Below, in pieces: positions 4,699 through 60,800 of a stretch of 64,000 nt of DNA. The number at the start of each line of letters is the position of its first letter. The stretch's first letter is position 1. Source of the stretch: Amoebophrya sp. A120 (taxonomy: Eukaryota; Protista; Dinoflagellata); assembly GCA_905178155.1 (NCBI GenBank), contig CAJINV010000002.1:2312998-2376997 (forward strand), given 5' to 3'. The translations under genes were made by a program, and so were the position numbers. The notes beneath the pieces are model-generated. The model ran no database searches. It worked only from the letters and a program-made list of their open reading frames with translations, and had not been told where the DNA came from.

Positions 4699-7236
4699 TC
4701 ACATCGCCACTTCCGCCTGTCCCATCTTGTGCCCACCCCCGGTCGCATAAGCGTCTAACTCCTCTTCCGTCAAAAACTGCGCTACTAACTGTTATCAAAT
4801 GTAAAAGTGTCTGGGTCCGGAAGAAAAAGAATGCAACTTGTGATGCTGTATTTGGATTCCAAAAAAATCTGTATTGCATGAGTACCAAAAGGAACGTAAT
4901 TTTTGCTACGCGGAGAGGGAATTTGTCATGCGGAATAGGCATCAAGAAGCTCTCAAAAAATCTGTGATGCTAGGGCATGCATCACAGACATCAGGGCTCA
5001 TGCAAAACGTGCATGACAAGTGTCAGAATCTCCCAGACCCAGACATTTTTGCAATCCATAACTGTCCCGGGTCGACGATGCCCAGGTCTGGTTTCAAATT
5101 TTTCGTGAACTCCGCGAAGGACGGTATCCGAAGGAAAGTTGATACCGCACACAAGCAAACGCTAACCATGCAACACAGGATTAATAAATGCTACCTCAGA
5201 CAGCAATACAAATCTCACTTTGCTTTGGGTATGTCATCAAAATTTGCCATCTGCGACGTGTGCGGCAATAAATCTGTATTGCATATCCGGGTCTAGTATC
5301 GAGCTCTTCTTCGTCGGGCCGTTTCCCTTTGAATCGGGCGAGCAGTACTGCGGCCATTTTTTCTCCATCTCTATCCCACGAAAAAACTGCTTCACTGTGA
5401 TGATTCTGTACGTTTTGCATCACAAGTTTGCTCTACATCACGGAGGAAGTTTGCCATGCGAGCTTCCTATGGGAAAGCTCGCCTACAAATGCATTATCTT
5501 GCATGTGTAGCAACACAAACACGCTTGCGATACATTTTCTGCATCACAAGTTCATTAGTGAAACAGTTTCCTCTTGCGATAATTTCCTCACTGACTTCAA
5601 TTTTCAAATCCTTCAACTCCGTCTTGATCAAATGGTCGTACCGCTGCTATGAATTGCAAAAGTATCGCACCTCTCGTAGCATTGTATGCAATACAAATTA
5701 GCTCAGCATGACAAATCCAAATGGAACTTGTCATGCGGATTCAGCTTCAGAGAGAGAGATCTGTAATGCATAAACGCAAGTACTACGAGTACGATACTTT
5801 TGCACAGGATAGCTGCAACCGGAAGTTGATTTCGATCTGGTCCACGCACTGCGGGGTTTGACCTAAATCCAGAAATCGCATCGACGCCGAGTTCACGAGT
5901 GTTTCTAACGCTTCTTCTAGCGAATTCTGCCCCGTAGCGGAAACAGGGTACAACGATCCGTCCCCGTCTTGCTGCAATAGCCCGGAATTTTCCAAGTACG
6001 CGTATAACCGCTGGTCGTCCGTTTCATCGCTGTCCGGGTCGTTCGGGTTTTTGTTCGCGTTTGATGTCCCATCGGTTGAAATAGAAGACCCGAGGTTGTG
6101 GTTCGGACTGTAATTCGGGTTCGGCGGGTAGCCGGCAAGCGCGGGAGGTTGCTGGTTTTGATTCGCATTCGCTGCTGCAGTATTCATTCCTTGTTGTGAA
6201 GGTTTCAAAGCGCTGAGTTGCTCTGGACTGGCTGGCGGCGGTTGATCCGGATTTGAATTTTGTTGATCTGTGGATGCCTGCTGGTCATTATTCTGCTGTG
6301 TTCTCACCACCGGCGGGCCGGAACTTGTCACCCCCGCGCCCTGGGTCACTGCGTTGGCGATACCAGATGCTCCTTGTTGCGCAGCAGCAGTATTTGATGT
6401 TCCGGGATTACCTGGACCTGTCCCCACTCCCCCTACGCTGTCGGAGTGGACTAATTTGCTGCCGTCGGAGCTTGGTACCAGTTCCAGAAACTCCGCGACA
6501 GCCAGCGTGCGGCAGTCGGTATCAAATGCAAATATGTCTGGGTCTGGAAACTTGTGATGCTGGTTGCGAAAGACGAGGACGCCTCAATTGACTGGCAAGC
6601 ATGACAAGTTTCGGAGGTGCTACAGTCTTGCCTTTTCTGCATGACAAAGCGACCTTCTGCACGACAGAAAAGTGGTGCCTTTGGGTAATGTGCATGACAG
6701 ACTTGAGAGTCATGTCCGACAAGCATGACAAACCTTGGATCTTTCCAGACCCAGACGTGTTTGCAGTTCATAATCGGGCTCGAGGATCAATACCCCGTTG
6801 AGGTAATGCTGTAGCTGCATCTGCCGCTGGTTGATAAACGCCTGGTCGTTGTTGCCGAACAGTCTTTTGCCGGGAAAATGGGGAAGTTGCACCGGGTACT
6901 TCTGCTTCAGCGTCTCGTTTAGCTCATGGAAGTGGCTATACCTGGAGGAAAATTGAAGATATATGAACTTGCAGTCGGCGTCCGCGTCGGGCTTCTTTTA
7001 TGCATGACAGACGGCTGCTCTGCTTTCTCTTTGAGCTGTATACATGGCGAAGTGTGATGCAAAAAGGCCAATAGTACTTACCTTTTCCCAATGTCCCACG
7101 ACTGTCCGTCCGGTGACATGACCCGCAAATGGTAAATCGTGTGCCCGGAAACGTTTGTGTTCTGGTAAATCATTGCCGTGTACGGGATCAAGGGGCTCTC
7201 CGGATCCGGAGAAAGATGCGCAGGATGGTCCGACAT
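4699..7236 (-). CDS. PX (phox homology) domain protein, multi-exon
   Basis: Spliced translation MSDHPAHL...GHTIYHLRVMSPDGQSWDIGKR|YSHFHELNETLKQKYPVQLPHFPGKRLFGNNDQAFINQRQMQLQHYLNGVL...EFL is typical PX (RYS-F, P-FP-K, R...L..YL). GT-AG intron about 6942-7081. Exon structure at 5070-5290 is uncertain. Confidence 0.8.
4793..5060. mobile_element. Introner family A
   Basis: Family-A TIR; TSD ACTGT. Confidence 0.9.
5372..5581. mobile_element. Introner family D
   Basis: TATCCCACGAAAAAACTGCTTCACT...AGTGAAACAGTTTCCTCTTGCGATA; flanks ATCTC/ATTTC. Confidence 0.8.
5648..5811. mobile_element. Introner family B
   Basis: Family-B TIR; TSD GCTGC. Confidence 0.9.
6520..6772. mobile_element. Introner family A
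   Basis: Family-A TIR; flanks GTCGG/ATCGG; interrupts the end of the PX domain. Confidence 0.88.
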
Positions 7237-26047: not shown

Positions 26048-29000
26048 TCACTTCTTCCCCCCTTTGTTCACGCTGCTCATCCTCGGTCCTTTCAAAGAAC
26101 CAGGCACAGCAGCTCCCTCCCCCTTCACTCGTCCTTTCGCACCAGCTCCGCCTGTGCTGATCCTTGCCGGACCATCTTCTTCATCAATAGCGCTCATCAT
26201 TGCCAAAGCACCCATCTTCCCCGCCGCGGGCGTCGCTGCCCGTGCGATTGACGGTCTGTCGCGCGGCTGTCCTGGTTTTTTCTCTACTTCCGGCTGTATC
26301 TTCAGCTCCCCTTGCGATAATTGTTGAAAAGACACCACTTTCTTCGGCGTGGCGGTGGCCGCAGAGGGGCGCGGCTCTGGTCTGAAATTAGTTGGTGCAG
26401 AAGAGACCATGCCAGGGGAAAGCTTATCAAATGTAAAAATGTCTGGGTCTGGAAACTTGTGATGCTGGGTGGCATAGCATGAGGAGGCCACAAGTGCTGG
26501 CTCAGCATGACAAATTTCTGACCTTGTAGGTGTTGCCTATTCTGCATGACAAACTGCGTCTCCGTATGACAGAAAAAAGCGTCTCTTGGGCAATGTGCAT
26601 GACAGATCTAAGAGTCATGCCAGACAAGCATGACAAGCATGCAATCTTCCAGACCCAGACACTTTTGCATTTGATAAAGCTGTCGCTCAAACATTTGTCT
26701 AGCGGCCGTGAAGGAAGCGTTAGGTGGAGATTGGGAACGGGACCGGGCGGGACCTTTCTTGGCTGCTTGAGTTGCAGTTTCCGTTTCCGCGTGGTTCGAA
26801 CTGCTGTTATTTATTCCTGCCTCCACCGGCAACACCGTCGCCCGAGTTGTTTTCCTTTCAGATTTTCGGGCAGCAGCTCCTCCTTCGCTCCTCCTCTCAT
26901 TCTCACTCGACTGCTGGTCATTGGTAGAAGAGCTACCTGATTTATTGTTGCTTTTCGACGCCCTTCCGGATTTCGAGGACTTCCGCATCCTGCTTTCAAT
27001 TTTTGCCTTTGCACTCGCTCTGATGTTCGTCGACTTCCGCCCCGAAGAACTAACGCTTTTGTTCAACTTCTTTGGGTTGTCCCCGTATTTCTGCGCAATC
27101 TCCGCCATTTTGTCTAATTCCGTTTTGTTGTCGAAGACCGTCTCGTTCGCCTGAAAAGTGTCGGCAGCGGTTATGGAGTTTTTGACATCACTTTGCTCTG
27201 GTTGACTCGTCACTATCGCGGTTTGCCTTTCGATCGCGGTTTTTCGTGGCTCCAGCACCGTTTGCCTTTCGGCGGCTGATTGTATTGTGGCAGCACCAGC
27301 GGAAACATCTTTCGTCTCCAACGCGCTGGCCCGCGCCGCGGCGGCTTTCGCTTCACTCTCCCTTTCGATGCGGGTCACGGCTTTCGGGACCATCTGATTC
27401 GTCACGGTGGTTGCGGATGGGAAAAGAACAGTGTCAGGCTTCACCTTCTTCGGCATCGTACCTAGTTTCCCGTGCGCCTGCGTGAATTCGGCGGACGCAC
27501 CGACTTCTCTCGACTTCCTGGCGACATTTACGTCGACCGCCCCCGCTTTGATGGGCTGTTTCAAGCTGTTCAAGTTCGCCCCGTCAACCGCAGAGGATGA
27601 ATCCACGTGGGACAAAACCTCAACTGTGTGCCGTTCTTGTGGTCTAAACTCCGGAAACGTGGCGGAAATGTTTCTCTTGTGGCTACTATGTGTGGAAATC
27701 ACCACTTTTTTCAAAGACTGCTCATCCACAGACGCGACAGACTCATTCCCTTCGGACCTAACACTGCTATCCCTCTGCGCAGCGGATTTCCGGGCACGGG
27801 TCCTGGCGGAATGATGATCTACTCTTGGGTCGTGCTTAGTGTTGTTTTCGGTGGAAGTCGTGCCTGATGTTGCGCGAATAATTTTCGTCGTACTGTCGTG
27901 TCCCTTTTCCCTATCCCTGGAAGTAGAATTTTTCTTCAAATTCTTCTCCGAAGTCAATTCCAAGGTTTTCGATAAGTGATCCAAGCCCTCAAAAAACACC
28001 GTTCGGAAAACGTCCTTTTCCAAATCGAGCGTTTTATTCTTGCTACCCGGTAGAGTCTCAATCTCTTCGTTCTGCAGTAACTTCGCGAGTAGCTGCATGG
28101 CGGACAGGTTTTTCAAATTGTAATCCCCAGACAAATCCAGGAAATTTCCGGATTTGAACTCATGCAATTTCTGGTCAAATTTGTTGAAGTTTTTCGGGTT
28201 GCGACGGATGAGGTAGGCGTCGTCCGGGTCGGAAGGCTTGTTGGGGTCGTCAACATGCTGTCCGGCTTCGTCTGGTTGCCTAACGCTATCTCCCTGTAGT
28301 TGTACTTCGCTCTGGTCAACCACGACAGAAGCCTGACCGACGCTCGCATTCACCCGTTGGAACTGATTTGTAGCTCCCATGCCCGCATCTCCTGCCGCTG
28401 CTCTATTCGGTGGAAACAGCTCATTCGCGATCATTTTCTTGTACATCGGGGAGTTCTGCCAGTCTTCCGGTAGGAATTCATTTTGGTTATTCGTCGGCAT
28501 ATTGTTGTTTAGCATGATTCCTCCCTGTCCTATCACATCCGCGGTCTTCCGCTGCTCCTGCTTCCCGCTTCTGTTGTCGATCATGATCGGCGCTTTCTCC
28601 TCCATGTTTTTGTTCAGGAATAAAGACCAGGGGACGAAGAGCACACGATATTTCTCTTCGTCGAGGTTTTTCAAATCGGAAGCTTTGATTGTCGCGCCAG
28701 CTTTTTCGGAAAGTAGCGCCACCGCCGGGACGACGTCCGGGATGAGTTTGGGACTACTTGGATCATTGTCATCCAGCACGGAGTCCTGCCCTTTCGCGAA
28801 GTATTGAAACTGCTCTTCCTCATCTTTATCCACGACGATCGGGACTAGAGTTGTCGCGCTCATATGTTCATCTGGTACTACCGCTGTTGCAGCTGCGCCG
28901 CCAGCTACTGCACTTCCACCGCGGCCCGTAGTCGCATAGTTCATCAAGCTGCTCCGCGTGAAATCTTGCAACTGCACATTATTACTCCCCGTCTGTACCA

Positions 29001-32000
29001 CTACCTTCCCATGCGTATTTGCGTTGTAGATCCCGAAGCCGAACTGACTACCCAGTTCATACCGCACCTCCTCCAGCCTCTTCGTGAATTCCAACACCGA
29101 CCCGGCCTCGCAAACGCACAACATCCGTAAAGTATCTGGTAGTTCCGTGAAATTCGCCTGCATGGCCCAAAACCCGTGTTCCTCCGCCTCAATGCAGTTG
29201 TGCTCTTGATCATCTATCAATATCGATTCGATCAAATTGTACACCCGAAACTGCTCTTTCTCCTCAATCAGCAGCTTCATGCGCTTCCCTTTATTCATGG
29301 AAAAGGGGAAGGAATCTCCACCGCAAATTTGGTCGAAGAGAGAAAGTAAATAGTTCTTCCGCAGAACCTCCGTAACGAATTCCGTGTAATTTCCCGACAG
29401 CAAAACTATCACATACTCCTGCTTCAACACCGCCAAAGACTCTCTGATGTACTGGATCCGGTGGGAATTCCCCAGGTTCGTGACATTTTTCGTCGCCGTC
29501 ATCCCGTGGCCACTCTCGTTGTTCGTCGTGTAATTCGCAAGGCAATTGTCGAAGTCGACACAGAGGAGTTTCGACTTCTGCTTGCTGTATCCACGGAATA
29601 AGCGGTCACCGCTTGTTCCACCGGTTGCAGTCGTATACAGGTTCTTAAAAGACCCGGACTGGGCTAATTCCCTCGTTGTTTGTAAAAATCTCCGTTCATT
29701 CGCCGCGACGTTCTTCCTCAATTCCCGGAGCTCGTGTAAGTGCGATTTGTCCGCCTCGGTTAAATTTAGCAAGTTGTCACTGTCGGTTGTGGACGTAACC
29801 GCGGCCAAGGCGTTGTGACTTGTGAAATCCTGGAGATTATCTGCAGCCAGCAGATTGTTTGCATTCTTCCCTTCCCGCCCAGCGGACTTCTTCCCGATAG
29901 TAGTCGTCCCTCTCGGTGTCGTCATCACGTATTCCCCCTGAATGCTGTACCGGTTGCGTTTTTTCGATTTCTTCGGCTCTAGGCCCTCTTTCAGGTTTAG
30001 CTGCTTTTTAGTTGCTGTCGTACTGTTCCGGGAAAGCGCGATGTTCATCCCAGAAGCGGTTGAAAAGCGTTGATCCTCTCCGGGTAAAGCCAAGTCTGCT
30101 GCAAGGTTGTAGCTATTCCGGTTATTCAGCAAAGCCGCCATGGCTCCCCGCCGGACTTGCTGCTGCTTTTCCTGGAAAACCTGGGTTGGTAACCGCGCGG
30201 GCGCATTTGATCTAGTTGTTCCATCTGCACTGGTACTATCCCTTTGGTATTGCATCGGATTGTAGTCTTTGTCATAGACAGACGCTTTTCTCTTCAACCG
30301 TTCTAATTCCTCCCTTGCGATGATAACCACATCCGCCGGGAGAACCGATGTGTTCGCCGCTTGTCCTCCTGTGACGTTCGCATTCGTCGAAATGGATTTT
30401 TTCGTCCTGCGAGCACGAAGCGGACTAGTGGTTGTTGTGTCCGCACCAGCAAGAACCGCGGACGAGCTACTATCCGCACCAATCGCATTTACATCATTGA
30501 CCGGCGCGCCGGTAAGCTGCTGCTTTTGGTTTTGTTGCTGCTGACTCTTCGTTGCAAAAGAGTTATTTCCAAACACACTCGCTTGCACCTGCTGCCTCAA
30601 CATCCTCGCCCGTTGCTGGTCGGTCATGCCGTTATCCGTTAAGTCTAACGCGTTCAAGGCGATTTGGTTCACTTCTTTCGTCTCTTCCAGTCTTTCCAGC
30701 GTCTCTCGAGAATCGGATAAGCCTGAACTATCGCCGAGACTTGGCTTTCGTTTCTTTTTACTGGCTCTCGGCCGCATCTGTGGCTGGACAAGCGGCTGCT
30801 GGTTGAATTCGCTCTCCGGATCCAGTTTTTCCCGGATCTCGGTCGGTCGCTGGGGTTTGATGCGCTGCAAAGAAGGGGGCTGATCGGCGGTTGATGTCGG
30901 TGTTGCAGCCACTGTACTAGAAGACTTCTTCTTGCGCTGCGCTTTAGATTCTGGTGCTACTTCTTGCCGTCTTTCGTCGGAGCTGGAAATGATTTGTGTC
31001 GTCACATTGCTAGCGGACAACGCGGACTGAGATTTTCTCGACGACCGCCGAACCAGGGAACTCGTGGTGTCGGCGACAATTGATGCAGAAGTCCTATTTC
31101 TTGTCCCTCGATTAGAATCCTCCTCCTTCTGCTCCAAAGTCGACGACTTGCTCTCCGCAGAAGATTGCAACGGTGCGCCACCGAAACCGGTATTGTCGTC
31201 CGCTAGGATGACACCAGGAGCAGCACTTTTCCTTGATTTCCTAGAGGGAGGCTGGAATTGCACTGGAGAACCAGCTTGTAGTTGAGAAGCTCGTCCTGGT
31301 GCTGGCCCCCCGTTCTCCTGCGATATCCGTTTCATGAACTCCTGCTCCACCTGCTGGACATCGGGCGCGAGATGAGCGTTGTCCCAATTATACTCTTCAA
31401 CCGGGCCGTAGTCTCTATCCAAAATCTCGACCTGATTGTAGTCTTTACCCAAAATCTCGATCCCGTTGTCTTCCTGAACATTCTTGCTTGATCGTCCCAT
31501 CTCCATCTGCTTTTCCTTCCGGCTCAATCTTTGACTCAATTCGTTGATCCTTTCCTGGTCCGCGATAGTCAACTGTGAATCTCGAGAGTCAACAGCGGCT
31601 GAATCTCTCGGCAACAGTACAACGGAGGTTGTTGATGCTGTTGGCAGCTCCCTAGTACTTGTTCCACGTGGCATCAGACTTTCCCCGGACGCGCGACTGA
31701 TCAACGCAATCGAGCCCTCGGTTTGGGGGATGAAGTTTGACCCGCGGATGCCGGTTTTGGTTTGCCGGGAGGGGTTGATGGATGGACGTGGACCACGCTT
31801 TAAAGCAGATTTTTTCGACGTTCCGGAGAAGGAGAAATTGCTGTTATCTCCCACATCGGAAGAAATAACGTCATCTACGCTCGTTCTTCGCACCGACGTG
31901 GTTCCGCGGTAGAGGTTGACAGACCCGGTTGCTCTGTTCGTTCCTTGTTGGATCGTATCGTGATTGTCGTCTTCGAAACTAGAGCTGAGGGCGAGCTTGA

Positions 32001-32202
32001 TCGCCTGGTCACGGTCACTGTCCCTGTCGGAAGCATTTGCATTTCCGGCTGATATTATCGCATTGTCGGCCATGCTGTTTGCATTTGCTTCTCCCTCAGG
32101 TTGTCTCATGCTTCTTCCGGATGAAGATGTTGTTGATTTATTAGGCGCTTTGTTCCTCTTCTCCTCCTTCTCCTTCGCCTTGCGCAGCGAGTGGCGGAGC
32201 AT
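26048..32202 (-). CDS. Large (~1,960 aa) mostly low-complexity protein with a central HAD-superfamily hydrolase domain
   Basis: About 29150-29580 encodes LLCVDFDNCL (motif I), IVLLSGN (II), NKGK (III) and ILIDD..HN (IV); one introner near the 3' end. Confidence 0.75.
26425..26676. mobile_element. Introner family A
   Basis: ~30-bp TIR TATCAAATGTAAAAATGTCTGGGTCTGGAA; TSD AAGCT. Confidence 0.93.
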
Positions 32203-33288
32203 GGTCGCTTAGGTGATAAGGACGCGGCTCTGCCAAAAAGAAGGCTTTTTTCAGAATAGGAGAAAGATTTTTTCTGCTGCCACGCACCTGTGCCTTTTCC
32301 TACACACGTGGAACTTATCGCTGAGATGCATTCGTAGCAAAGAACAGGCGAATAAAGCCGATACATTCAAGGGGAACGGGGGATAGGTTTGTCGAATTCA
32401 AAACATTTTCGTTGTCATATGAACACGTGGGGGGGAGGCATGGCATGCTAGTTGGGGTACAAATTTGAAATCATCGGGGCTGTGCTTTTTTGTTGAGAGT
32501 GAAAAAAGTTGATTAATACACGAGGAGTACGAAGGTAAAGTTACGGCCTCGAGAAGTGAATTTCAGTATCAGTACTCTATTCGAATACATTCTTGTACGA
32601 AGCCACAGTGGCCTATGTTGGTAAGTATGAACGAAATTAATGATCCGACGTGACAGTGAGGACGACTACGACGTACCGACAGGAGCACGATGGTTGGACA
32701 TCAAGCACGAACCGACAAGTCATCTTCCAAGCTGTACTTGCAATGAAAGGAACGGCAGACCGAAATCTTTACTTGGAGCCCTAGTACCATCACAGACAGT
32801 AGTAGAGGCACGAAAACCGAGACGTTTCTTTTAGCAGAAAAAGATATCCTTCAGAAAATCTGCTGCGCGAACGATGCACAGTCGCACCGGCTGGTGGACA
32901 ACTGGAGGTGTTCTTAATCTCTGCTCGGATGGATAGGGTAGCGCTTTATTTCGGAGGTTGTCAATGTGAATTCAACGAATCATGCTGGGTAAAAATTTGT
33001 TGAAATCTTCTTCGTCGCAAATTCGTAGGTAGAAGTACTCATCGAGATATTCGAGTTGTCCACCTTTTCATCGCCTAGCCACGAAGCAGCAACCAACACA
33101 TCAAACTCCGACGGCTCAGAATCTAACGTGCAGCTTCAGATAAGCATGAGTAGCTTCCCGTTTAAAAAAATCTTCGTTCTCCTCCCTGTTTTGAAAATCC
33201 GCAAGGTTGTTGAAACAAACACCACACGCACTTAATCCTGCTCGTGAATCGCGGTCAAGTGGTCGTCAATTTCCGCCGCGGAGAGCAA

Positions 33289-33496
33289 TATCCAAGAAAA
33301 AAACTGTGTCAATGTAGGTGTCTTGGGGTAACGGCATGACAAATCTGTTCTGCATGACAGACAAAGCCTGTCATGCGCAGCTGGTAAGTGAAAACACAAA
33401 TGAAATAGGACTCAATGGCTGGCTAGCATGACAAGTGTAACAGTGTTGCATGCTTTGCATCACAGACTTCCACTTACACAGTTTTTTTCTTGCATA
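33289..33496. mobile_element. Introner, family D-like
   Basis: TATCCAAGAAAAAAACTGTGT...ACACAGTTTTTTTCTTGCATA; flanks AGCAA/AGCAG. Confidence 0.88.
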
Positions 33497-33566
33497 AGCA
33501 GGCGGAAGGGTTCGTTTTCCGACACCACCCCAACCTCCAAATCCTGGGCCTTCAAATCCTGCGCGA

Positions 33567-33716
33567 TATGCACTGCAAAAGCATCGCACTAGTAAAAATT
33601 GCATTACAAATTAGCCCAGCAATACAAATTAAATTTGTAGTGCTGATTTACCTTGAGAAAGAGATTTGTAATGCATAAATGCAATTACTACGAGTACGAT
33701 ACCTTTGCACAGGATA
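33567..33716. mobile_element. Introner family B
   Basis: Family-B TIR; flanks CGCGA/CGCTA. Confidence 0.88.
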
Positions 33717-33888
33717 CGCTAAGACCTGGCACAAAACGTCCATGCACTTCCTAATCGTCTGCTCCTTCGTCAAAGTCGTTTCGTGCGGGTTTGTACTGGA
33801 CTCGGCGTTCTTCACGACCTTCTCCAAAGCGTTCATGCCCTCCTGATCCTTTGGTCCGGTGGCCAGCGCCTTCCACCCAAAGTAGTGC

Positions 33889-34266
33889 TATGAACTGCAA
33901 AAGTATCGTACTCGTAGTATTGCAATACAAATTGGCTCAGCATGACACATGAAATTTGTCATGCTGATTTAGCTTGAAAGAGAAATTTGTAATGCGTAAC
34001 GCCAACCTCCAAATCCTGGGCCTTCAAATCCTGCGCCAAGATCCTGCATGACCCACGATGCCTGTAGTGCATGACTTAGCATCACAGATTTTTGGAAGAC
34101 TTCCTGATGCCTATTCCGCATGACAAATGCCCTCTCCGCGTAGCACAATCTGGGCTCCTCTTGCTGGTCATGCTGCAATACAGATTTTCATTTTTTTAGA
34201 ATCCAAAGACAGCATGACAAGTTTGGATCCTTCCTGACGCTGACCCAGACATATTTGCAATGCATA
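33889..34266. mobile_element. Chimeric introner (family-B left part + 35-bp exon copy + family-A right part) at the duplication junction
   Basis: Starts TATGAACTGCAAAAGTATCG and ends CCCAGACATATTTGCAATGCATA; 34001-34035 repeats about 33530-33565. Confidence 0.85.
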
Positions 34267-34421
34267 TTATCGTCTTCGAAACTAGAGTTCCTCGCGAGCT
34301 GGTCACTGTCGGAAGCATTCCTCGCGAGCTTGATCGGTTGGTCACTGTCGGAAGCATTTGCTTTGTTATTGTTTCTCTTCTCCTCCTTCTCCTTCGCCTT
34401 GCGCAGCGAGTGGCGAAGCAT
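34267..34421 (-). pseudogene. Truncated duplicate of the HAD-gene 5' end
   Basis: MLRHSLRKAKEKEEKRN...SSFEDDN matches the N-terminus starting at 32202, with deletions and a short internal duplication. Confidence 0.8.
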
Positions 34422-35423
34422 GGTCGCTTAAGTGACAGGACGCTGTCGCGACGATAAGACGCCTTTTTGCTTTTCAGAATAGGAGAAGGACTGCTGCTGC
34501 AGTTACGCGCCGGCAATGCCCTGCGCTACACACGGGTAACTCGTCGCGGATATGCATCGGAAAAGAGTAGGCGGAAGCTGCCCGATACATTTAAGTAAAT
34601 TAGGGGGAGCGGGGGATAGTTTTTTCGAATTCAAAACATGCTCGTAGTCATACGAAAACATGGGGGGATATGGCATGCTAGTTGGGGTACAAATTTTAAC
34701 TGGTCGGGGCTGTTTTTTTCGTTGCATGTGAAAAAAATATGTGGTGGTCAAAGTATTGAAACTTCAGTACATACTCTATTCACCTGCATTCTTGCACGAA
34801 GACCACGCCGCAGCCTATGATGGGCAATGTCCTGAACGAAATCATCCGACGCGAAGGAGAGAACGATATACCGAGGAAGGTGAGGTTGCCGATGCAAGAG
34901 ATTCAAAACATAAAGCACGAACCGAAAAGTCAGCTTCCAAGCTGTCCTTGCAATGGACGGAACGGCACACCGAGATTTGATTTTCACGTCAAGTGCCAAG
35001 ATGATCGAAAGTACAGACACTAAAAATACCGAGCAGACGCTTCTTTTTTTTACCGAAAAAAGGAATCTTTATAGACAAACAGCATGCGCGTGCGTTGCAC
35101 AGTCGCACCGGCTGGTGGACACTTGCTCGCATGGATCATTGGGGAGCGCTTTTCGGAAATCAATGTGAATGTAACAAATGGTGGGTAAAAATTTGTTGAA
35201 ATCTTCCTCGTCGCAAATTCGCAGGTAGTACTATCGAAATATTCAAGTTGTCCTCCTTTTCATCGCCTAGCCACGAAGCAGCAACCAACACATCAAACTC
35301 CGACGGCTCAGAATCTAACGTGCAGCTTCAGATAAGCATGAGTAGCTTCCCGTTTAAAAAAATCTTCGTTCTCCTCCCTGTTTTGAAAATCCGCAAGGTT
35401 GTTGAAACAAACACCACACGCAC

Positions 35424-37813
35424 TTAATCCTGCTCGTGAATCGCGGTCAAGTGGTCGTCAATTTCCGCCGCGGAGAGCAATATCCAAGAAAAAAACTGTG
35501 TCAATGTAGGTGTCTTGGGGTAACGGCATGACAAATCTGTTCTGCATGACAGACAAAGCCTGTCATGCGCAGCTGGTAAGTGAAAACACAAATGAAATAG
35601 GACTCAATGGCTGGCTAGCATGACAAGTGTAACAGTGTTGCATGCTTTGCATCACAGACTTCCACTTACACAGTTTTTTTCTTGCATAAGCAAGCGGAAG
35701 GGGTCGTTTTCCGACACCACCCCAACCTCCAAATCCTGGGCCTTCAAATCCTGCGCGATATGCACTGCAAAAGCATCGTCCTAGTAAAAATTGCATTACA
35801 AATTATCCCAGCAATACAAATTAAATTTGTCATGCTGATTTACCTTGAGAAAGAGATTTGTAATGCATAAATGCAATTTTTACTACGAGTACGATACCTT
35901 TGCACAGGATACGCTAAGACCTGGCACAAAACGTCCATGCACTTCCTAATCGTCTGCTCCTTCGTCAAAGTCGTTTCGTTATGCGTTGCAAATATGTCTG
36001 GGTCTGGAAGGATGGAACTTGTGATGCGTCCTCTGGATCACACAAAAATCTGTCTTGCGTGATCAACATCAAAAGACGCCCTTTTCTGACCACCAGGAGA
36101 GGGAGTTTCTCATGGAGATCAGGCATGATAGAGACCTCGCAGCGTCTGTCATGCTATGGCCTGCATAGCAGACCCCATGGGCAGGGGAAACCTGCATGAC
36201 AAGTTTACATTCTTCCAGACCCACCAGACATATTTGCATTCCATATTCGTGCGGGTTTGTACTGGACTCTGCGTTCTTCACGACCTTCTCCAAAGCGTTC
36301 ATGTATTACGATGAAAAATGCCCCCAACCCGGAATTTGCAGAAGTTTGTCATGCAAAGTTTCCAAATGAAAGTTTTTTATCTTGCATAAAAGGATTGCGA
36401 GCGTTTCTGATGCAGAATCTGGGTGCGCAAGGTGCCTTGCGCATAACAGATCCGGCTGCTGTTGGGCTACTTCGCAACACAAATTTGACCTATTCAGCAT
36501 GGCAAATTTGTGATGCTGAGATATGCAAGACGGGGAATGTTTCTGTTGGAAAGGTTTGCAATACAAATGCTGCCAAGCTGGGGGTGGGGGCATTTTTCAT
36601 TGTAATATCATGCCCTCCTGATCCTTCGGTCCGGTTGCCAACGCCTTCCACCCAAAGTAGTGCCCGGACGGGTCGATCTTCCACCTGATAGTTTCAACGC
36701 GATTTATGCTTGCAATATGAACGTTTGTTTGTTATGCAAGCGTTGCATGAGCAGTCAGGAATAGAGTCAACAATGCTGGATTCTCTATCATGCGAAAATC
36801 AAAGAGAAAATCTAATACAATTGCGGTCCCTTCTCATCATCCACGCCCAACAGGTGAATCACGGTTCCCAACGGCCTCACCCCGGCGTGCTGCGTGAAAA
36901 TCTGGGCTTTCTTCCCAACCTTCGAAGCCAGAAAGTGCACCGGGATCTCGTACCCTATCCTGAGTAAAAACGTCCCCACCCCATAGTTGTCATGCAGCTT
37001 TGCAATCACAGGAAGATCTGTAATGCGCATCCCGATGAGAAGCATTTCCAATCGCGTTTTGGACTTTGTGATGCAGTAAACCGGATGAGCAGATGGCTTT
37101 GTGATGCGGCTGCACCTGCTGAAGTGCACTACAATACAGAGAGGAACTTGTCATGCGTGATTCCCAAAACTTCTCGACCTGTGTTGCGAGATCCCCATCT
37201 TGACTCTGGGGTGGGGACGTTTTTGCCCAGGATATACCCGTTCTGGTCCTTAAATTTCGCTGCGATCTGGCGGGTATCAAATGCAAATATGTCTGGGTCT
37301 GGGAGGATGCAACTTGTCATGCTATCTTTGGACTCTACATAAAACCTGTAATGCATGAACAGCAAAAGAGGTCCAGTTTTTGCCACGCGAAGGCGACATT
37401 TCTCATGCGGTATGAGCATCAGAAAAGTCTCGACGCAGAATGTGTGATGCTCGGGCACGCGTCACAGACTCCATGGGTCATGGAAAATGTGCATGACAAA
37501 CTTGGTCCTTTTCCAGACCCAGACATATTTGCAATGCATAGCGGGCCTGGGTGATAACCACCTTGCAGTCCGGAACGGAACCGATGGCCAAGCAGCCGAT
37601 GTTGGGGGTAATGTTGTACATGTTGGTGATGCAGGAAGGATCGAGCAATTTGTCCGGAACCTTCCGCTGCGCTACCGTGCACACCGTGTCCTTCCCCCGG
37701 AGGCAGATCCCGAGAATACCCTGGTTCTGGATGGATTTCAACGCGTACTCAATCTGATACAACTTCCCCTCCGGGGAGAAAATTGTGATCTGCCGGTCGT
37801 GGTTGCGAGACAT
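35424..37813 (-). CDS. PSMA6: 20S proteasome subunit alpha type-6 (alpha1), 8 exons
   Basis: HDRQITIFSPEGKLYQIEYA, VPDKLLDP, GYEIPV, TQHAGVRPLG, DDEKGPQLWKIDPSGHY and EIDDHL. Six introners plus one GT-AG intron (36685-36818). Confidence 0.95.
35481..35688. mobile_element. Introner, family D-like
   Basis: TSD AGCAA; paralogous to 33289-33496. Confidence 0.9.
35759..35911. mobile_element. Introner family B
   Basis: Paralogous to 33567-33716. Confidence 0.88.
35980..36245. mobile_element. Introner family A
   Basis: TSD TTCGT; empty site in the duplicate at 33780-33784. Confidence 0.95.
36304..36607. mobile_element. Introner family E
   Basis: TATTACGATGAAAAATGCCCCCA...TGGGGGCATTTTTCATTGTAATA; TSD TCATG; empty site at 33833-33837. 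Confidence 0.95.
36956..37234. mobile_element. Introner family C (279 bp)
   Basis: Family-C TIR; TSD TACCC; internal sequence reversed relative to 3156-3434. Confidence 0.92.
37275..37540. mobile_element. Introner family A
   Basis: Family-A TIR; TSD GCGGG. Confidence 0.92.
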
Positions 37814-46136: not shown

Positions 46137-49100
46137 CTATGTTACAGCCTCACCGACATAACCCCTCCTCTTCTGAACATCGTCTTCTTCTCCACCTCCT
46201 CCTCCAGCGTTCTTTCCATTTTCCTTTCGCTTTTCCTTTTCCCGAACAAACAGCCCAGTCCCATTACTAGGTCCTTTTCCGTCGATCCCTATTAAAGTCC
46301 CGTGTTGTCGGTCCACCGGGTGCATCACCGGCGTTCCTCCGCTGGTGTCGTTAAAAGGTGCCCCGGATCCGTTTGTTCCGTAGTAATCAACACCTTCTCG
46401 ATAAACCCCGTCTAGACTTTCCTCTAACCCAGTCCCGTTATCAAAAGTAAAAATGTCTGGGTCTGGAAGAGTGCGCGATTTGTCATGCTGCTTTTCCATG
46501 ACCCATGGGGTCTGGAATGCAGGACCTAGCATGTGAGATTCTGCGAGACCTTTCTAATGCCTATCCTGCATGAGAAACTCGCTCCCGACTTGGTCAAAAC
46601 TGGACGACTTTTGGTAATCATGCAACACAGATTCAGATTTTTGCATGCTGCAGATTTAGCATAACAAGTTGCAATCTTCCAGACCCAGACATTTTTATAT
46701 TTGATACCCATCCACGTTTCCCGATTCCTCCGGGGTTGCCGCGTCTTCGCTACTTGTATCAAATGTAAAAATGTCTGGGTCTGGAAGAGTGCAAGTTTGT
46801 CATGCTTGTCTAGCATAACTCTTAAATCTGTTATGCACGTTACCCAAGAGCTCCATTTTTCTGTGATGCAGAAACGCAGTTTGTCATGCAGAATAGGCAA
46901 CACCTGGAATCTCAGAAACTTGTCATGCTGAGCCAGCATTTGTGGCCTCATCATGAGACGCCACCCAGCATCACAAGTTTCCAGACCCAGACATTTTTGC
47001 ATTTGATAACTTGCCGCCGAATCGTAAGCTGTTTCGTTGGTCTCGTTTTTGTTTTGATTTCTCCTCCGCCCCCGCCTGGAAGAAGTAGAAAGAGACTTCT
47101 TCTCATTTTGCAAAAGCAGCGCCGCCTCGTGCATCACCACTTGACTCTCGCCAAACTCCTCATCCTGCGGGTTCTCCGCGTCAACATTCCCGGAGAGCCA
47201 GTCCAAAGTTGCGTTTGCGATTGGGTGAATGCCCGCGATTTTATCGTATGCGTAGTTGATGGCAAGTTCGACAAGTTGCAGAACTGGATCTTGGGACGTA
47301 TCGAGTTTGGGGACCTCGTCAGCAGAAGAAGATTTCTTTTCATCTGCAGAAGCGCTATCTCCTTCAGAGCCTGCTGCTGTTTTCTCTTTATCGTCTTCTG
47401 CTTCTGATTTCTTTTTCTTCGGTTTTATTTCGCTACCCTCGCTTTCATCTTTTTCAGACGACGCAGGCGCAGCAGCTTCTTTGTCATCTTTTTTCGACGT
47501 TTTTTTATCTGCTGTGTCCACTTCATTTGCTCCGTTTTCCTTCTCCGTTGCGGCTAGCTTTTCCACCTCTACGTGTACGTCCTCCCCCTCGCCCCAGGTT
47601 GCGGATACATTAATAGCGGCTGTAGCATTACTATTTTCCTCGAAAGCTGCGCCGGCTGCTGCTGTGTCATTCGAAGGTGCACCCCCGCCGTCGAGGTCAA
47701 AGGACGCAGTCGCAGTTACGTTCTGTTGAAGGTCAAAGGATGCAGTCGCAGCACTTGAAGCGGCAGCCTCTGCGGTTGCGTTGCTGTCGACAGACGCTGT
47801 GTCGCCTTCGGTGCTGTTGGAAGCTTCTGCAGCTGTGTCTGCTGCTGCTGTTGGGTTCGTTGCGTTTGCAGCTTCAGTTTCTTCCGCTTTATCGTCATCA
47901 GTTTGAACACTCGTCGTTTTCTTTTCCTTGTTCTCACTACTTCGCCTAGAAAGCTGTGAAGCTTCTGCGTCGTTCTTGACGAGCACCTTCTTTTCGTTCA
48001 GAGATGACGATGAGCTATGGTCGTTTTCTTGCTGTTTCAGCGGAGTGCTGACCTTATGGTGGAGGTGGTCTTTTCCGCGGCTAAAGCCGTCTTCTACCTC
48101 TTCTGGATTCTGCCGTTTCAGTTCGTCACGCGAAGAAGGAGATGCTGTTGCTTTTGCTGTGTCAACAGGTGATGAGATTGCTTCTCGTGCTGGTGCAACT
48201 CCAACGCCAACCTCCTTAGCTGCCTTATTCTCCGTACTTCTCAGCCGGATGACCCCCGCTTGCGGATCCGGATTACTAAAATGCGGAGGGCGACGTATTT
48301 CTTCTGGAGCTGCTGCTGCTGTAGCATCGGGTTGCTGTGGTTTTCTGCTTGTTTTCGCAGCAACATCTCGCATTTTTCCTGATCCTGCGCCACGCTTTCT
48401 CGCGAACAAATACCCCTCGGTACTGTTGTCCGCAGCTTCTTCGCTCCCACCGCCTTCTGCTGTCTCCGTTTCGTTTCCACCACTACCCCCTTCTGTCGCA
48501 TTGCCACCATCCCCACCACCTTCCGTCGCATTATTTCCACCCCCTCCGTCACCACCTTCTGTGGCATTTTCCCCAGAACCTGCTTCCGAGCCTTCTTCCT
48601 CTGCTCCCGTCTCCACCGCCGCCTCTCCCGGCGCAGCGGTCGTGGTAAAATTCGCCAGTGCCGGGTATGACCCGCTCAAACGTTACAATCTCAAACGTTA
48701 CACTAGAATTATGGAAATCTGTGATGCAGGAGTGCACGATCTAGCCGACTCTCATAGGATTGCGCATGACAAGTTCCGGAGCCCCAAACCCCACTACAAA
48801 AATCCGGCAAAATTTGTATTGCAGAAAGTGGAACGCTGTGCGACTCTGTCATGCTCATCATGCAAGACAGGTCTCAGATTCTATTGTAACGTTTGAGATT
48901 GTAACACCTGAGCGGGTTATACCGGAATGGTTTCGACCGGGCGCATCGCCACGAGCATCGCCTCCATTTCCTCGTCTAACGCCGTGAATTTTTCCGTGTC
49001 CTCCGCCACCTCATCGCAATACAGCTGGCCAAACCCGGTTATGCTCCCCTTGTTGCACAACAACCGCGTTTCCTTGTATTTCAGCTGCACCCCGTTATCA

Positions 49101-52100
49101 CAGCTCGCACGCGGCTTCTTCACATCCCAGGCCGGCGCAACCATGCTCCCGCTCATGAAATCCAGCCCTGCCGCTGTCAACGCCGCGTCATCCTCCATGT
49201 CCGTGAGCTCGTCTGCGCAATCCGGGGACTCCTCGGGCAATTTTGTGCCCAACGGCGCTTCCAACTTTGCTTCCTCGTACATGTTATGCAGTGCAAATAT
49301 GTCTGGGTCTGCCGGGTTGCAACTTGTCATGCTGACTCTGGACTGTGAAAAAATCTGTGTTGCATTGTTGCCAAAACTTGTCCACTTTTGACCAATTTGC
49401 GAGGAAGTTTCTCATGGGGGCTAGGCATGAGAAAGATCTCACAGAATCTGTCATGCTATGCGCTGCACGCCAGACCTCATGGGTCATGGAAAACCTGCAT
49501 GACAAGTTCCCCAATCTTCCAGACCAAGACATATTTGCATGGGATACATGTAGTGGCAAACGCGATACCGCAGACAATCCGACGCGTACCCCACCACCCC
49601 ACCGTTGTGCTCCGCACACCCGGGTATGCATTGTAAATAGGTCATCTGGGTCTGAAAGAATGCGAACCTGTGATGCGCATTTCACAACTACGCACTCAAA
49701 TTTTTAATGCATAGGCAGCAAAAGATGCCCATTTCCTACCACTAAAATGGGGCGGGATTTGTCATGCGGATTAAGTAGGCAATGCGAAAGATTCTCGAAA
49801 TCTGTGATGCTAGGGCTTCCATGACAGACCTTCTGCGTCATGCAAAAACAGCATGACTTCCAGACCCAGACATATTTGCATTGGATACCGGGTGCCGTGC
49901 CACAAGTACCCATGCAGTCGTACGTTCTGGCCAACTTCGCATCTTCAGAATGATCGGGCGAGTCCTTATCCAGTGCAAAAGCACCGTGCTCGTAGTAATT
50001 GCAGTCATGCAACACAGATCCACCCTTTCGTTCCTACGCTAAACCAGCATGACAGATTCCATTTGTTGTAAATGCTGACGCAAAAATTGTATTGCAATTA
50101 CTACTATTTACGCTGCTTTTGCAATCCATAGTCCTCGCCGCCGGACAAAACCAGTTGTGCTTCTCCCCAGCACTCGCCCGCGTACATCAAAATTTCGTAG
50201 CACTTGCTCTCGCACTTCGTGAATTCCGTCCGCTCGCACTTTCCGTCGGATTCATCGTAAAAAGAATTCGCCTCAAACCCCTCCTGACTCGTCGGCATCC
50301 CGAGCTGCGCCCCGTCAAACTGTACAATGTACTCCACACCTTCGTGGTAATCCCGGTGCGGGTCAATGTAGCCATTCATCGCGCTGCAAACGTTATTCCC
50401 CGCGAGAAGTTTCCTATGTAGCGCGTTGTGCTCGTAAAAACCGCAGGGTTTTATCCGGGTTAGGTCGCAGTTGTCCGACTTCCCCTCTTCAATATTACTG
50501 ATGGAACAGGGCGGCTTTCTTCTCAAACACGTGCCCGCCGGATCCCGTTTGCCGTCGTCATCCTTGCCGTCCGCATGCAGTTCCCCGATACTACGAAGCT
50601 CGTCGTACTTTTGCTTCACCATATCCGCGCTCGGCTCGGTACGATTCACACTGCGTGGCGTGGGAACTACGGACTTCTCCTCTGATGTGCCAGCACCGGC
50701 TGATGTGTTGTTACCCCCAGCTCCTTGTTCCTCGTCGGAAGCTCCTGCTAGTTCAGTGCCGTTGCCAGCACCGGAGAGGACATCAGCATCTTCTGTGCCA
50801 TTGGCACTCCCGTCTGTACCGTTTGTGGCGTTGTTCCCGCCATCAGGTGTGGCAGCCGCGTCTCCTTCTTCAACACCATCTGCGGCACCAGCGGCGGTGT
50901 CGGTGCCTGCTTCTGCGTCGGTGCCCCCTTCCGCATCGGTGCCTCCTTCCGTATCGGCGCCTCCTTCCGCATCGGTGCCTCCTTCCGCGTCGGCGCCTCC
51001 TGCTGCGTCGGCGACTGCTTCTTCGCCGTCGGCGCCTGCTTCCGCCTCGGCGCCTGCTTCCGCCCCGGCGCCTGCTTCCGCCTCGGCGCCTGCTTCCGCC
51101 TCGGCGCCTGCTTCTGCGTCGGTGCCTGCTTCTGCGTCGGTGCCTGCTTCCCCCTCGGCGCCTGCTTCTGCGTTGGTGCCTGCTTCCGCATCGGCGCCTC
51201 CTTCCGCATCGGCGCCTGCTTCTGCGTCGGTGCCTGCTGCGTCTTCTACTTCTTCCGTCGCTTTTTCAACGTCTTTTCCTACCTCAAACGCCAGCTCCTC
51301 GCTATTCTTTATCTTTTCCCCAACTTGAAATCCTAACTTCTCCGTCTTCTCCTCGCCACTTGACACTGCAAAATTCGCTTTGCCGACAACCGGTTGGATT
51401 TTGATGTGACTTTTTCTGACGTCCGGCACTATTTTCACGGTCGCCCCCGGATCGTTCATTTGGTTCTTCGGGTAGATTTGAAACTCCCGTCGGTCGGTCG
51501 GTGCGTTCTTCGGCCGGGAGACCCATCCAGATGATGAATCCGTATGCTTTTTTAAGTTCGGGTCGTGAACCTTCACTTTTGAACTTTTCCTATTCGGCTT
51601 TACTCTAATCCCGTTGTTCTTCTGATCCGGAGAGATGTTGAAGATTTTATTCTCCTCCGCAGCGCGGATCTTCACCTTGCTGTTTCTTTCCCTCGGAGCG
51701 ACGGTGAATTCGAAATTTTGTTGTTGTTTTGGCCTGTCCGAGTCTGGTTCCGGGTCTGGTTCGGCTTCATCTTTCCGACGGGCGGCCATGATTTGCACTG
51801 GGATGTTGTCGTCGTCGTCGTCCGCGAGAAAAGAGGAGGCGGAGGACTCGGTTGTTGTTTTACTCCTATGTTCCCGAAGATGAGAACTCGTAGTTCTTCG
51901 TGTGCTGGTGGCCAATCGTCGCGCAGCTGCGGCGGTGCTGTCCAACCGCTCTGCAGTAGTCAACTTTGGATGATCTTCAAGTTCAACGTAGGCGCTCAGG
52001 AAGAAATAGAAGTAGGAAAACGTCGTGCAAACGTGGCGGACAATGTTCTTCGTTTGTGAGGATCGTAGCCGTAGCAGTCGAGCACGACGGAGGAGTGATG

Positions 52101-57800: not shown

Positions 57801-60800
57801 AAAACTGGCCCAGGCTTGCGACTTTTGCAACTCCTTTTCACTTTTTTTATTTGTCGCGAACCCCTTCGCGTCCGGGTCCGAGCCAGAGCCACTATCACCG
57901 TCCCCCATAGAACTCATCTGCTCCAACTGCCCCGCTAAATCCGGGTTATCGAGCATGATCCCCGGGAGAAGAGTATTCCAAAACTGGTACTGCGCGTTGT
58001 GCGGCTCGAGCTTCGTGCCCGTTTCGGTGTCCAGGAGCACTTGCAGGTTGTTTTCGTCGTAGTCCATGGTTAGAATGGTCGCTTGTTTACTATCTTTGAA
58101 AGTTATAGGAGGACCACCTGGGTCGTCGGACACCATCGTGAGGATTTTCGGGACTAAGAATTCGAAACCGCGGAATTGTTCGTTGAGATCCAGAGCCGTA
58201 GAGGTAGAAATTTTATCTCCGATATTTTGTCCTGGCTGTATCCTCTGCACCGCCGCCCGGAGAATGACCGTCAAGATGCTGCGCAACCGCGAGACGTGCA
58301 ACACGATCTCGGTCGGGGGTTTATTTCCAGTAGTTGGTTCCGCGGTACTTCTTTGCCGATCAGTTTTTCTCGCGGCGAGTAAAGCAGTTGTTATCGGGTC
58401 GTCGGTACTCGAAGCCGATACGTCGCTTATCTCATCTCCTGCATCCTGCTCACCGGATATCGCTGTAGTTTCTGAATCTGAACCACTAGCACTCCTCGTC
58501 GCATTACTGACCGCCGCGGTTGAAGATGACGATGAGCTTTCGTTTCTTCCCATAAACCCGTGCTTTTTCAGATAGTCCTCCATTTTCGTGTAAAAAGGTT
58601 GGTACAGCTCCATCATTTTACTCCCAATGTTCCGCTCTCCCGCGACAATCATTTGGTGCCGGTGCCGGTACACATGCACGTTGATCACCCGGTGATCTGG
58701 GATCGCCGTCGCTTTCACGGCGGAAAGAACCGAGTTTCGCAGGTGCTCGTTGACGCACGTGTTGAACTGTTCCAGCTGAATCGCTTGCGTGAAAAGGGCT
58801 AGTTGCTGCGTAGAAGAAGATTCTGCTTTACTACTACCAGGAGCAGGCGGGAGATCACGACTGTTTTCTTCTACATCACCCCCTTCCAGGCTGTCCACAT
58901 CATGATCCTCTTCTTCATCAAACCCCGTTATCCGGTAGCAAATGTCCACATCCAAATCCCGCCCAAAGCCGTCGTTCCCCAGCCCCACCCGCGCGAACGC
59001 CGACTCGATGGCCTGCGCGGTGAGTTGTGTGGCCGGAGCGGAGTTCGCGGTGGCACTCCCGTCGATTTTTCGGCTGTACCCGAATAAGGGGTTCGGGTAC
59101 ATAGAATCCGGCGTGGGAATCAAGCCTGTCAAAGCGTTGCTGCCGCTGAACGTACCGCTTCCGGGAGCGGTTAGTGTACTGGGGAACACCTGACTCGGGT
59201 ACCAGTCGGTACCAACCGAAGTTAGTCGCGCTGGCAACCCTTGCACACCGGCGATACTGGGGGGTAAATCCGCGCGAATGGAATCATATGCACTGCAAAA
59301 GTATCGTACTAGTAGTAAGCGCAATACAAATTAACTCAGCATGACAAATGGAATTTGTCATGCTGTTTTGCCTTGTGATGGAGATTTGTAGTGCATGACT
59401 GCGATTACTACGAGTACGATACTTTTGCACAGGATAAGTCCCCGTCGGAGCTGCTGTACGCTTCTTCGGAAAAGGGGCCCGGGAGTTCGTCGAGATCGGC
59501 TTTGGAGGTGGAAACTGGGGAGAGAAGACCGTCGGTGAAATCGAAATCGGATTTTGAAGCGGTGGAGGATGAGCTAGAGCTTCTGCCTAAGCCTATCTCA
59601 CTCCCAAATTGCGTTTGCATCTGCATCTGCAGAAATTGCAAGTACTCCGCGGGTGGTGGCTGGCCTGCAGCTGTCCCTGTTGCACCCACATCACTAGTAT
59701 CTCCAGATGCGCCGGCCGACACCGACGCGTCATTTGGTGCTCCTGCACTGCCATCACCATCGCCACTGTTTGTTTTCTCCAGCGTCTCGCTTGCCACCAC
59801 CGGCTCTTTGTCACCGTTGTCATTTTTGGACATCTCCACCCCACAAACCGCCTGACCAATGCGGATTCTAGGACCGCCGGGGTTGTTGAGGGTGCTACTA
59901 CTTTTCGTGCTGCCTCTTGATGTGCTCCCACGAAACTCCTGTTGCCTCGCATCAAACATCTGCATCAAAGCTGCTGGCGCGCCAGCAGCTGGATCTTGTT
60001 GATTTGTTTCCGGGAACCCAAAACTCGTTTTCAAAACCGGTTTTGCCGGCTCCAGCTGCAACTATTGAGAGGAAAAATCCTCCCTCCCCATATCGAAAGT
60101 GTATGTTTCCGAAAATTTGTCTTGCTGATTTGAGACCACAAATCACGTCTGTCTTGCAAGAAGACAACTCTACAGGCTCTGCCGCATTATGCAGGCGGTT
60201 TGTGATGTTGTTGGGCCTACAGCATAGACGTTTCTCTTGCTAAGCGCCTAGGCCGAAACCTCTCTACTCAGGCTTCGCAGGAGCTTGTAGTCCTCTACTG
60301 CAAGACAAGCCTGATTTGTATACGCAAATCCAGCATCAGAAACTTCCGTTTGATATGGGGAGGGGGGATTTTTCCTTGTGATAGCAACCCTAACTTCTTC
60401 GACGGAGGTTTTTTACTTGCTGATCCGTTTTCGTTGTCCCCATTCCCCTTCTCCTGTTGCTCTTGGTAGTGCTGTGACAGAAACTTCTGCATCTCTTCCT
60501 GCTTTATTGCCCGATCGAAGTTCTTCTCCATAATGGATCGGTGATTCACGTATGCATTGCAAATATGTCAGTCTGGGTCTGGAAGAGAGCGCTTGTTTGG
60601 CATGCATGTTTTGCATGACCCATGATGTCTGTGATGCATGCCCTAGCATCACAGATGTTTTGAGGGCTTCCTCATCCCTAATCCGCATGACAAATGCCCT
60701 CGTCTACTCCGCGTAGCAAGAACAGGACTTCGCTTGCTGCTCATGCAATACAGTTGTTCTTTGGAATCGAAACGCAGCATCACAAGTTGTATCCTTCCAG

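Follow-up and report, generated by a model that had tools for sequence, protein, structure and literature searches.

Filled and empty introner sites in a partly duplicated proteasome locus of Amoebophrya sp. A120

Introduction

The introner elements of Amoebophrya strains A25 and A120 are noncanonical introns with inverted repeats of 8–20 nucleotides (nt) and direct repeats of 3–5 nt (Farhat et al. 2021, PMC7789003). Those of A120 end in TAT, seven variable letters and AAA (TAT-N7-AAA), and the legend to Fig. S19 of that paper shows a direct repeat of 5 base pairs (bp). The sections of the same source drawn upon here describe a strain-specific spread of the elements, an apparent lack of U1, and a border position that was unknown. 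In the portion of the work of Gozashti et al. (2025, PMC12130899) considered here, the A120 introners are classed as DNA transposons with terminal inverted repeats (TIRs), of many families. We describe a locus of Amoebophrya sp. A120 (assembly GCA_905178155.1, contig CAJINV010000002.1, positions 2,312,998 to 2,376,997 of the forward strand; this whole stretch of 64,000 nt is called the window) at which a gene for a proteasome subunit (P) and its neighbour (X) are partly duplicated, so that one and the same genome has filled and empty introner sites at a distance of 2.3 kb.

The two copies differ by four transposon-like introns, which were probably inserted after the copies had parted and each of which likely duplicated a target of 5 bases. 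An earlier note on this DNA, made from the letters alone, had pointed to such sites in the proteasome exons; it did not cover the extension of the duplication to the 5' end of gene X, where a further private element is found.

Filled and empty sites in the two copies

Self-comparison and alignments revealed a partial tandem duplication with a left block at about 31965–33888 and a right block at 34267–36663; every gene at the locus lies on the minus strand. The arrangement is reciprocal, the left block holding intact gene X and a proteasome fragment (P') which lacks the N-terminal 154 codons of P, and the right block a fragment of gene X (X') and intact P. Coordinates of all features are collected in Table 1.

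Introners A and B interrupt P and are each bounded by the same 5 letters on both sides, TTCGT and TCATG respectively, at exactly the positions that the earlier note had given. Its claim that the duplicate is uninterrupted at these points, with TTCGT once and TCATG once, was borne out by alignment and by DNA contigs. A 5-bp match is expected by chance about 0.001 times per element. The two are neighbouring introns, 58 nt apart, and introner C lies 63 nt further 3'. Introner A shows 72–76% identity to its four best relatives in the window. The bins over B have a summed depth of 6351–30099 against about 45 for unique DNA, so it is repeated in the genome; a full-length relative of B was not found within the window.

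Two introners, C and D, are common to P and P', as had been noted before. The copies of C align with 145 matches, 5 mismatches and one 3-bp gap, and those of D are identical at 208/208 positions.

Each of the two fragments has in turn an element that its intact counterpart lacks. The earlier note had placed an element of the duplicate at 33889. It is indeed missing from P, which has none at 36663/36664, and is 82–87% identical to four elements of the C family, but only about 110 nt of it remain; position 33889 is the end of the left duplicate, and C' is hence without a second direct repeat. The fourth filled and empty site is that of A', whose right end lies at 34266 in X' while X is empty at about 31964–31968. 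There are thus two clean pairs with a single-target empty site (A and B) and two one-sided pairs (C' and A'). The view that three different families are involved, and that the locus defines the boundaries of the elements together with a 5-bp target duplication, was upheld.

Support for both copies in sequencing data

Seven of thirteen sequencing runs were compared with the locus (X2, X4, X5, X8, X12 and X13 lay outside the comparison). DNA run X1 may derive from the source sample, and therefore bears on misassembly and on contamination with complementary DNA (cDNA) rather than representing a second strain. The depth of its contigs is 43.4 and 46.3 over the unique parts of the two blocks, 89.9 over a tract identical in both, and 41–47 over the flanks. 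Both empty sites are crossed with 0 differences, one by a contig covering 33755–33837 at depth 38.9 and the other by a contig running from 33808 to beyond 33902, into C', at depth 45.7. The filled junctions are carried by three contigs with depths of 37.2, 46.2 and 47.2. In X1 neither the 5' part of P nor the 3' part of X has a second copy (depth 41–51). The argument on ploidy draws solely on depth, a search of PMC7789003 for it having had no hits.

Both copies are real and each is single-copy in DNA; misassembly and cDNA contamination are ruled out. The earlier note would have given up its reading had genomic reads failed to support the empty copy, and X1 supports it at full single-copy depth. 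That the empty copy is an artefact of any kind (faulty assembly, cDNA as a contaminant, or a pair of haplotypes set down in tandem) we regard as exceedingly improbable. In its favour are the possible identity of X1 with the source sample and the fact that no single X1 contig spans the whole stretch of about 6.3 kb. Against it, the empty-site contigs bear letters specific to P', enter intron C', and have full, not half, depth; P' retains introns C and D, and both would be missing from cDNA; and the junction of the blocks was seen independently in an RNA-like run of another sample (X3), both contig ends having been predicted exactly.

Ends, target repeats and splicing of the elements

The TAT-N7-AAA ends of A, B, C' and A' were seen in the sequence before the window was surveyed for paired ends of this kind. 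The survey, which selected on that motif, yielded 30 automatically paired elements, and 0 pairs in each of 10 shuffled controls. A perfect 5-bp direct repeat flanks 21 of the 30 pairs and a 2-bp repeat 2 of them; repeats of 3, 4, 6, 7 or 8 bp flank none. After two rows judged to be mispaired (1653–2279 and 49285–49887) had been dropped and three elements re-paired, all of the latter with perfect repeats, the corrected set of 31, in which C and D are counted in both copies, had a perfect 5-bp repeat in 24, 4 of 5 matching letters in 5 and 3 of 5 in 2. Inverted ends are present in all paired elements, and the termini are complementary at 19/22 positions in A and 22/23 in B. Elements A, C and E have relatives of 72–87% identity in the window, and the bins over all elements far exceed the unique depth of about 45. 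The best relative of A in the window is 76% identical; X1 contains many short contigs 95–100% alike, which cannot be assigned to whole elements.

Further imperfect 5-bp repeats were seen at the elements 2334–2483, 6520–6772, 46439–46706 and 59287–59436. The element ends at 1653 and 2279, separated by 627 bp and with repeats that agree in 4 of 5 letters, may reflect mispairing or a nested or longer element.

Removal of an element together with exactly one repeat was observed directly in the spliced messenger RNA (mRNA) of P, which is matched by a 1200-nt contig of X7 and a 506-nt contig of the wild RNA run X9. In all six elements of P, none of the six possible cuts offers GT-AG or GC-AG; B allows AT-AC at one. 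The two copies of the repeat around C differ at one position, and the RNA of both X3 and X9 keeps the letter of the upstream copy, so the cut can fall no earlier than the second base of that upstream copy. The same letter encodes a Leu that is conserved in relatives.

These are the published noncanonical introner elements of Amoebophrya, and the class is not new: they have the inverted ends, the direct repeat, the TAT-N7-AAA motif, the noncanonical splicing, the repetition in the genome and the host genus. An introner of the algal type, with GT/GC and AG ends, was rejected, canonical dinucleotides being offered at no cut in the six elements of P.

With regard to spacing, an E-family element lies 39–40 nt from an A-family element three times (3434/3474, 37234/37275 and 61436/61476). 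A composite mobile unit of E plus A was considered and rejected, since the three spacers are unrelated apart from their repeats. Among neighbour gaps shorter than 200 nt, 11 of 13 measure 39–79 nt, which hints at a preferred or minimal spacing.

Divergence of the copies

P and P' differ at six exon positions, all within the 77 codons before D; five are synonymous and one is a conservative exchange of Glu and Asp. With 47 synonymous and 184 other sites this proportion speaks against neutrality (p=0.0017). Because of it, and because X' stays in frame across a net deletion of 84 nt, the comparison suggests that P' and X' were functional for most of their separate history.

The divergence is patchy. 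It amounts to 17% in intergenic DNA (128/764; the alignment of 32203–33062 with 34422–35254 has 636 matches, 128 mismatches and 49 gaps), about 11% at synonymous sites (5/47), 3% in C (5/150) and zero in the tract containing D (0/438). Element C and the intergenic DNA differ in this respect with p=3e-6, and the 438-bp tract and C with p=0.001. A later gene conversion of the tract and of the 3' part of P and P' is likely on this evidence, so that the 'shared' introners C and D need not predate the split. The mismatch in the D repeat of P' (33497–33501) is the first difference past the tract, and D may have been brought into P' by conversion instead of inherited.

The earlier note spoke of recent mobility. 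That the difference arose after the copies parted holds; the divergence of about 11% at synonymous sites and 17% in intergenic DNA, and the 76% identity of the best relative of A, do not fully bear out the word recent. Judged from these alignments, the split of the copies is not very recent.

The junction and its hybrid element

Where the blocks meet, C' (33889–33999) is followed by a 35-nt exon copy (34002–34036) and then by A', which lacks about its first 50 nt. Both elements are cut internally, and the resulting hybrid has TAT-N7-AAA at both ends, from two families, and no direct repeat. Templated inserts are typical of error-prone end joining.

The only contig of X3, a run taken by guess to be RNA, that matches the locus has 342 nt and a depth of 437. 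Its letters are those of P' at each of the four diagnostic sites, 33804, 33852, 33861 and 33866; it omits element C and continues unspliced into C'. A 35-nt repeat that breaks a 31-mer graph predicts that such a contig should end at 34031 and carry 27 loose letters; both were seen, which gives independent support for the junction. Contigs of X7 (34119–34234 and 34205–34711; depth 10–13) run over X' into A'. It is likely that the unit of X', junction and P' is transcribed from the X' promoter as a noncoding read-through from which C is spliced while the hybrid of A' and C' is kept.

The pairing of the 30-nt ends of the hybrid amounts to -15.4 kcal/mol, against -23.4 to -51.4 kcal/mol in 31 intact elements. 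We tentatively put forward, as a possibility less probable than its opposite, that the splicing of an introner is set by the long terminal hairpin of the element itself and not by the end motif or a perfect repeat, so that intact C is removed and the hybrid kept; the blocks would then be diverged working haplotypes joined by a cross, and 4 of the 6 introners in about 2 kb would be presence/absence differences between them.

It is very improbable that the junction makes a chimeric gene in which the X' exon is spliced across the hybrid to the C-terminus of the proteasome protein as a working fusion. Removing exactly 33889–34266 (378 nt) would give an in-frame fusion, and both ends carry TAT-N7-AAA; the normal rule of element plus 5 nt (383 nt), however, leads out of frame, and the only X3 contig at the locus keeps the element. 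No joint of X' to P' was found among those listed, a table of 15 of 650 that was swamped by repeats and is no test.

Somewhat less remote, yet still quite improbable, is that the duplicate was partial from the start: one break-repair between a pre-existing C' and A' would have produced the locus, P' would never have worked, and the synonymous bias would be due to chance or imported from another allele by conversion. The junction does resemble a single repair event, and the patchy divergence (0%, 3%, 11%, 17%) indicates that conversion occurred. An origin from one chromosome, however, predicts C' in P and A' in X, both of which are absent, and five of the six differences are synonymous, with the low p value given above.

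Gain versus loss

The history that we favour would run as follows. Two working X–P blocks, a complete duplication in tandem or else a pair of diverged haplotypes, would have diverged under purifying selection. Non-autonomous TIR elements would have been mobilised, by cutting or by copying, through a putative transposase with a staggered cut of 5 nt whose gene would lie elsewhere. They would have landed independently: P would have received A and B, P' would have received C', and X' would have received A'. The inserts would have been tolerated since they are spliced out, splicing restoring one copy of the target. Later, error-prone end joining would have linked a break within C' to the interior of A', copying in 35 nt of nearby exon and leaving one intact X and one intact P. 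Gene conversion would afterwards have homogenised the 3' part of P and P'.

The blocks may have come from a tandem duplication or from a cross between haplotypes. Amoebophrya is described as comprising cryptic species with little gene flow (PMC7018713, in the part used here), which argues somewhat against the haplotype variant. The same paper covers DNA-seq of 67 individuals.

Gain is favoured over loss, and is likely though not proven against it, because each copy, and likewise each gene, has private elements and one process known to be active, insertion, explains all four; because loss alone would require three events; and because the exons next to A and B, with 4 differences over 172 nt, are no more alike than the rest of P and P', so that there is no sign of a recent overwrite by cDNA of P. 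The empty sites carry one copy of the target; excision by a transposase is expected to leave a two-copy footprint. Of the introns whose positions A25 and A120 have in common, 98.6% are canonical, which points to introners as lineage-specific gains (PMC7789003, in the sections drawn upon here).

The chief competitor holds that A and B are older than the split and that the P' lineage lost both at once through recombination with spliced mRNA that had been reverse-transcribed, only C' and A' being later gains. The spliced mRNA does match the empty-site sequence exactly (RNA contigs, including X9), A and B are close neighbours, and retroelements are reported in these genomes (PMC7789003, same sections). 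We nevertheless consider it unlikely: it needs two processes instead of one, C is retained although it lies only a short way further 3', the exon around A and B has no extra similarity to P, and gains in the same period are attested by C' and A', the private elements found reciprocally. The earlier note had offered gain, or perfectly precise loss, after the duplication. The timing stands, since the difference post-dates the parting, and gain is likelier than loss through cDNA, though not proven.

Several points weigh against our reading as a whole. The single-target empty site is identical to the spliced mRNA sequence, so that it does not tell gain from cDNA-mediated loss, and adjacent introns such as A and B are what such a loss would be expected to remove. 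No outgroup strain that could polarise A and B turned up: a metagenome scan with the empty-site exon gave 325 pattern hits and 3 loci of 42–61% protein identity, too distant to polarise the change, and in the wild RNA of X9 only mRNA of the P type was found, plus two distant fragments. As C' and A' lack a second repeat, their target duplication follows from the behaviour of their families. No near-identical donor of A or B was found within the window (best 76%). No transposase came to light either, though none was looked for. The selection argument draws on six differences only, and frame retention in X' has a chance of 1 in 3. The read-through is pieced together from two runs (X7 34119–34711 and X3 33717–34031, with 34032–34118 not shown), and contigs, being graph paths, give neither strand nor single molecule. 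Sequence of the P type, too, is absent from X3, which means that rare forms can drop out there. With 22-nt ends the hybrid pairs at -14.9 kcal/mol, inside the range of -8.0 to -33.7 kcal/mol of the intact elements.

Two further runs added little: wild RNA X10 had 0 contigs matching the locus, and the raw-read RNA run X11 had 1 of 3,295,382 reads, which is uninformative.

Gene content of the locus

The 249-amino acid frame of P is left when one GT-AG intron is taken out together with six elements, a single 5-bp repeat going with each of them, whereas the frame breaks at 143 amino acids if the elements are taken out without the repeat. The protein is identical at 188/249 columns to the Amoebophrya A25 protein P0005. 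Its first exon contains Pfam PF10584 (Proteasome_A_N) and PF00227 (Proteasome), and only intact P qualifies as a full-length orthologue. The best named match, a protein of Amoebophrya sp. A25 (78% over exon 1), places the host at genus level only. A Pfam search with gene X gave no family. The next element beyond the first exon of X is at 26425–26676.

The introner load is very uneven, from 0 in the 5.5-kb exon of gene X to 6 in the 750-nt coding region of P. A short in-frame internal tandem repeat in X' (34290–34360) is without counterpart in X. From 22 to 64 kb the window has mostly strong negative AT and GC skew, which fits long runs of minus-strand genes.

Table 1. Features of the duplicated X–P locus (positions in the window)
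Feature	Position	Strand	Remarks
Gene X	26677..32202	-	intact; open reading frame 26608-32208; first exon of 5.5 kb, free of introners
Intergenic DNA and promoter of X	32203..33062		duplicated at 34422-35254; the two copies on distinct X1 contigs of single depth
Identical tract, 438 bp	33063..33500		equals 35255-35692; contains D; X1 depth 89.9
P', 3' fragment of proteasome gene	33232..33888	-	last 95 codons, without A and B; alignment to P
Introner D in P'	33289..33496		repeat AGCAA/AGCAG
Introner C in P'	33567..33716		skipped in RNA-like contig of X3
Empty site for A in P'	33780..33784		single TTCGT, exon unbroken
Empty site for B in P'	33833..33837		single TCATG, exon unbroken
C', left ~110 nt of C-family introner (~150-nt family)	33889..33999		only in P'; truncated at junction
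35-nt exact copy of proteasome exon 33530-33564	34002..34036		likely templated insertion
A', A-family introner without ~first 50 nt	34037..34266		only in X'; 75-80% to A-family elements
X', 5' fragment of gene X, ~52 codons	34267..34421	-	frame of X kept despite 84-nt net deletion
Gene P, subunit alpha type-6 (alpha1) of the 20S proteasome	35424..37813	-	intact, 249 amino acids, eight coding exons
Introner D in P	35481..35688		common to P'; AGCAA repeat
Introner C in P	35759..35911		common to P'; imperfect repeat CGCGA/CGCTA
Introner A, 266 bp	35980..36245		only in P; TTCGT both sides
Introner B, 304 bp	36304..36607		only in P; TCATG both sides
Sole canonical GT-AG intron of P	36685..36818	-	spliced form in X9
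Introner E in P	36956..37234		beyond duplicated part; TACCC repeat
Introner A2 in P (A family)	37275..37540		beyond duplicated part; GCGGG repeat

Comparison with known systems

The pairs described here fix the ends (TAT...ATA) and a 5-bp target across families. This speaks for a single mobilising enzyme, the search for which becomes narrower. The pairs also suggest that, while synonymous sites diverged by about 11%, turnover reached 4 of the 6 introners of a 2-kb block and did not spare a proteasome gene. Intron presence–absence polymorphisms in Micromonas, fungi and Daphnia are said to show recent intron gain through filled and empty homologous sites; those are found between strains or species, whereas here both states occur within one genome.

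Like the introners of Micromonas and Aureococcus that resemble miniature inverted-repeat transposable elements (MITEs), the present elements combine TIRs with a target-site duplication and leave the mRNA unchanged by insertion, and like the nonconventional introns of euglenids they lack GT-AG and have ends that pair; the algal introners differ in that they carry or co-opt GT/GC and AG (PMC11282704 and PMC9860276, in the parts used here). An intact element that is spliced, beside a hybrid that is not, offers a testable handle on how introns without GT-AG are recognised, a question left open in the consulted sections of PMC7789003. For Amoebophrya we found in the open literature no report of paired filled and empty introner sites and none of a splice test, though subscription papers or supplement rows may hold one.

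The many families, the TIR DNA type, units of about 260 bp and tens of introns per gene agree with the portion of Gozashti et al. (PMC12130899) considered here; its automated calls of the target-site duplication are 4 and 3 bp in 2 of 58 A120 rows, as against 5 bp at this locus. In end motif, inverted repeats and direct repeats the elements match the A120 introners of Farhat et al. (2021, PMC7789003). In the sections of that paper used here, the repeat is variable, the cut is unknown, and gain or loss is left open between orthologues, whereas here pairs within one genome fix the TAT...ATA ends and the 5-bp target, and one imperfect repeat limits the cut. The class is known, and the locus is a boundary-defining example of it.

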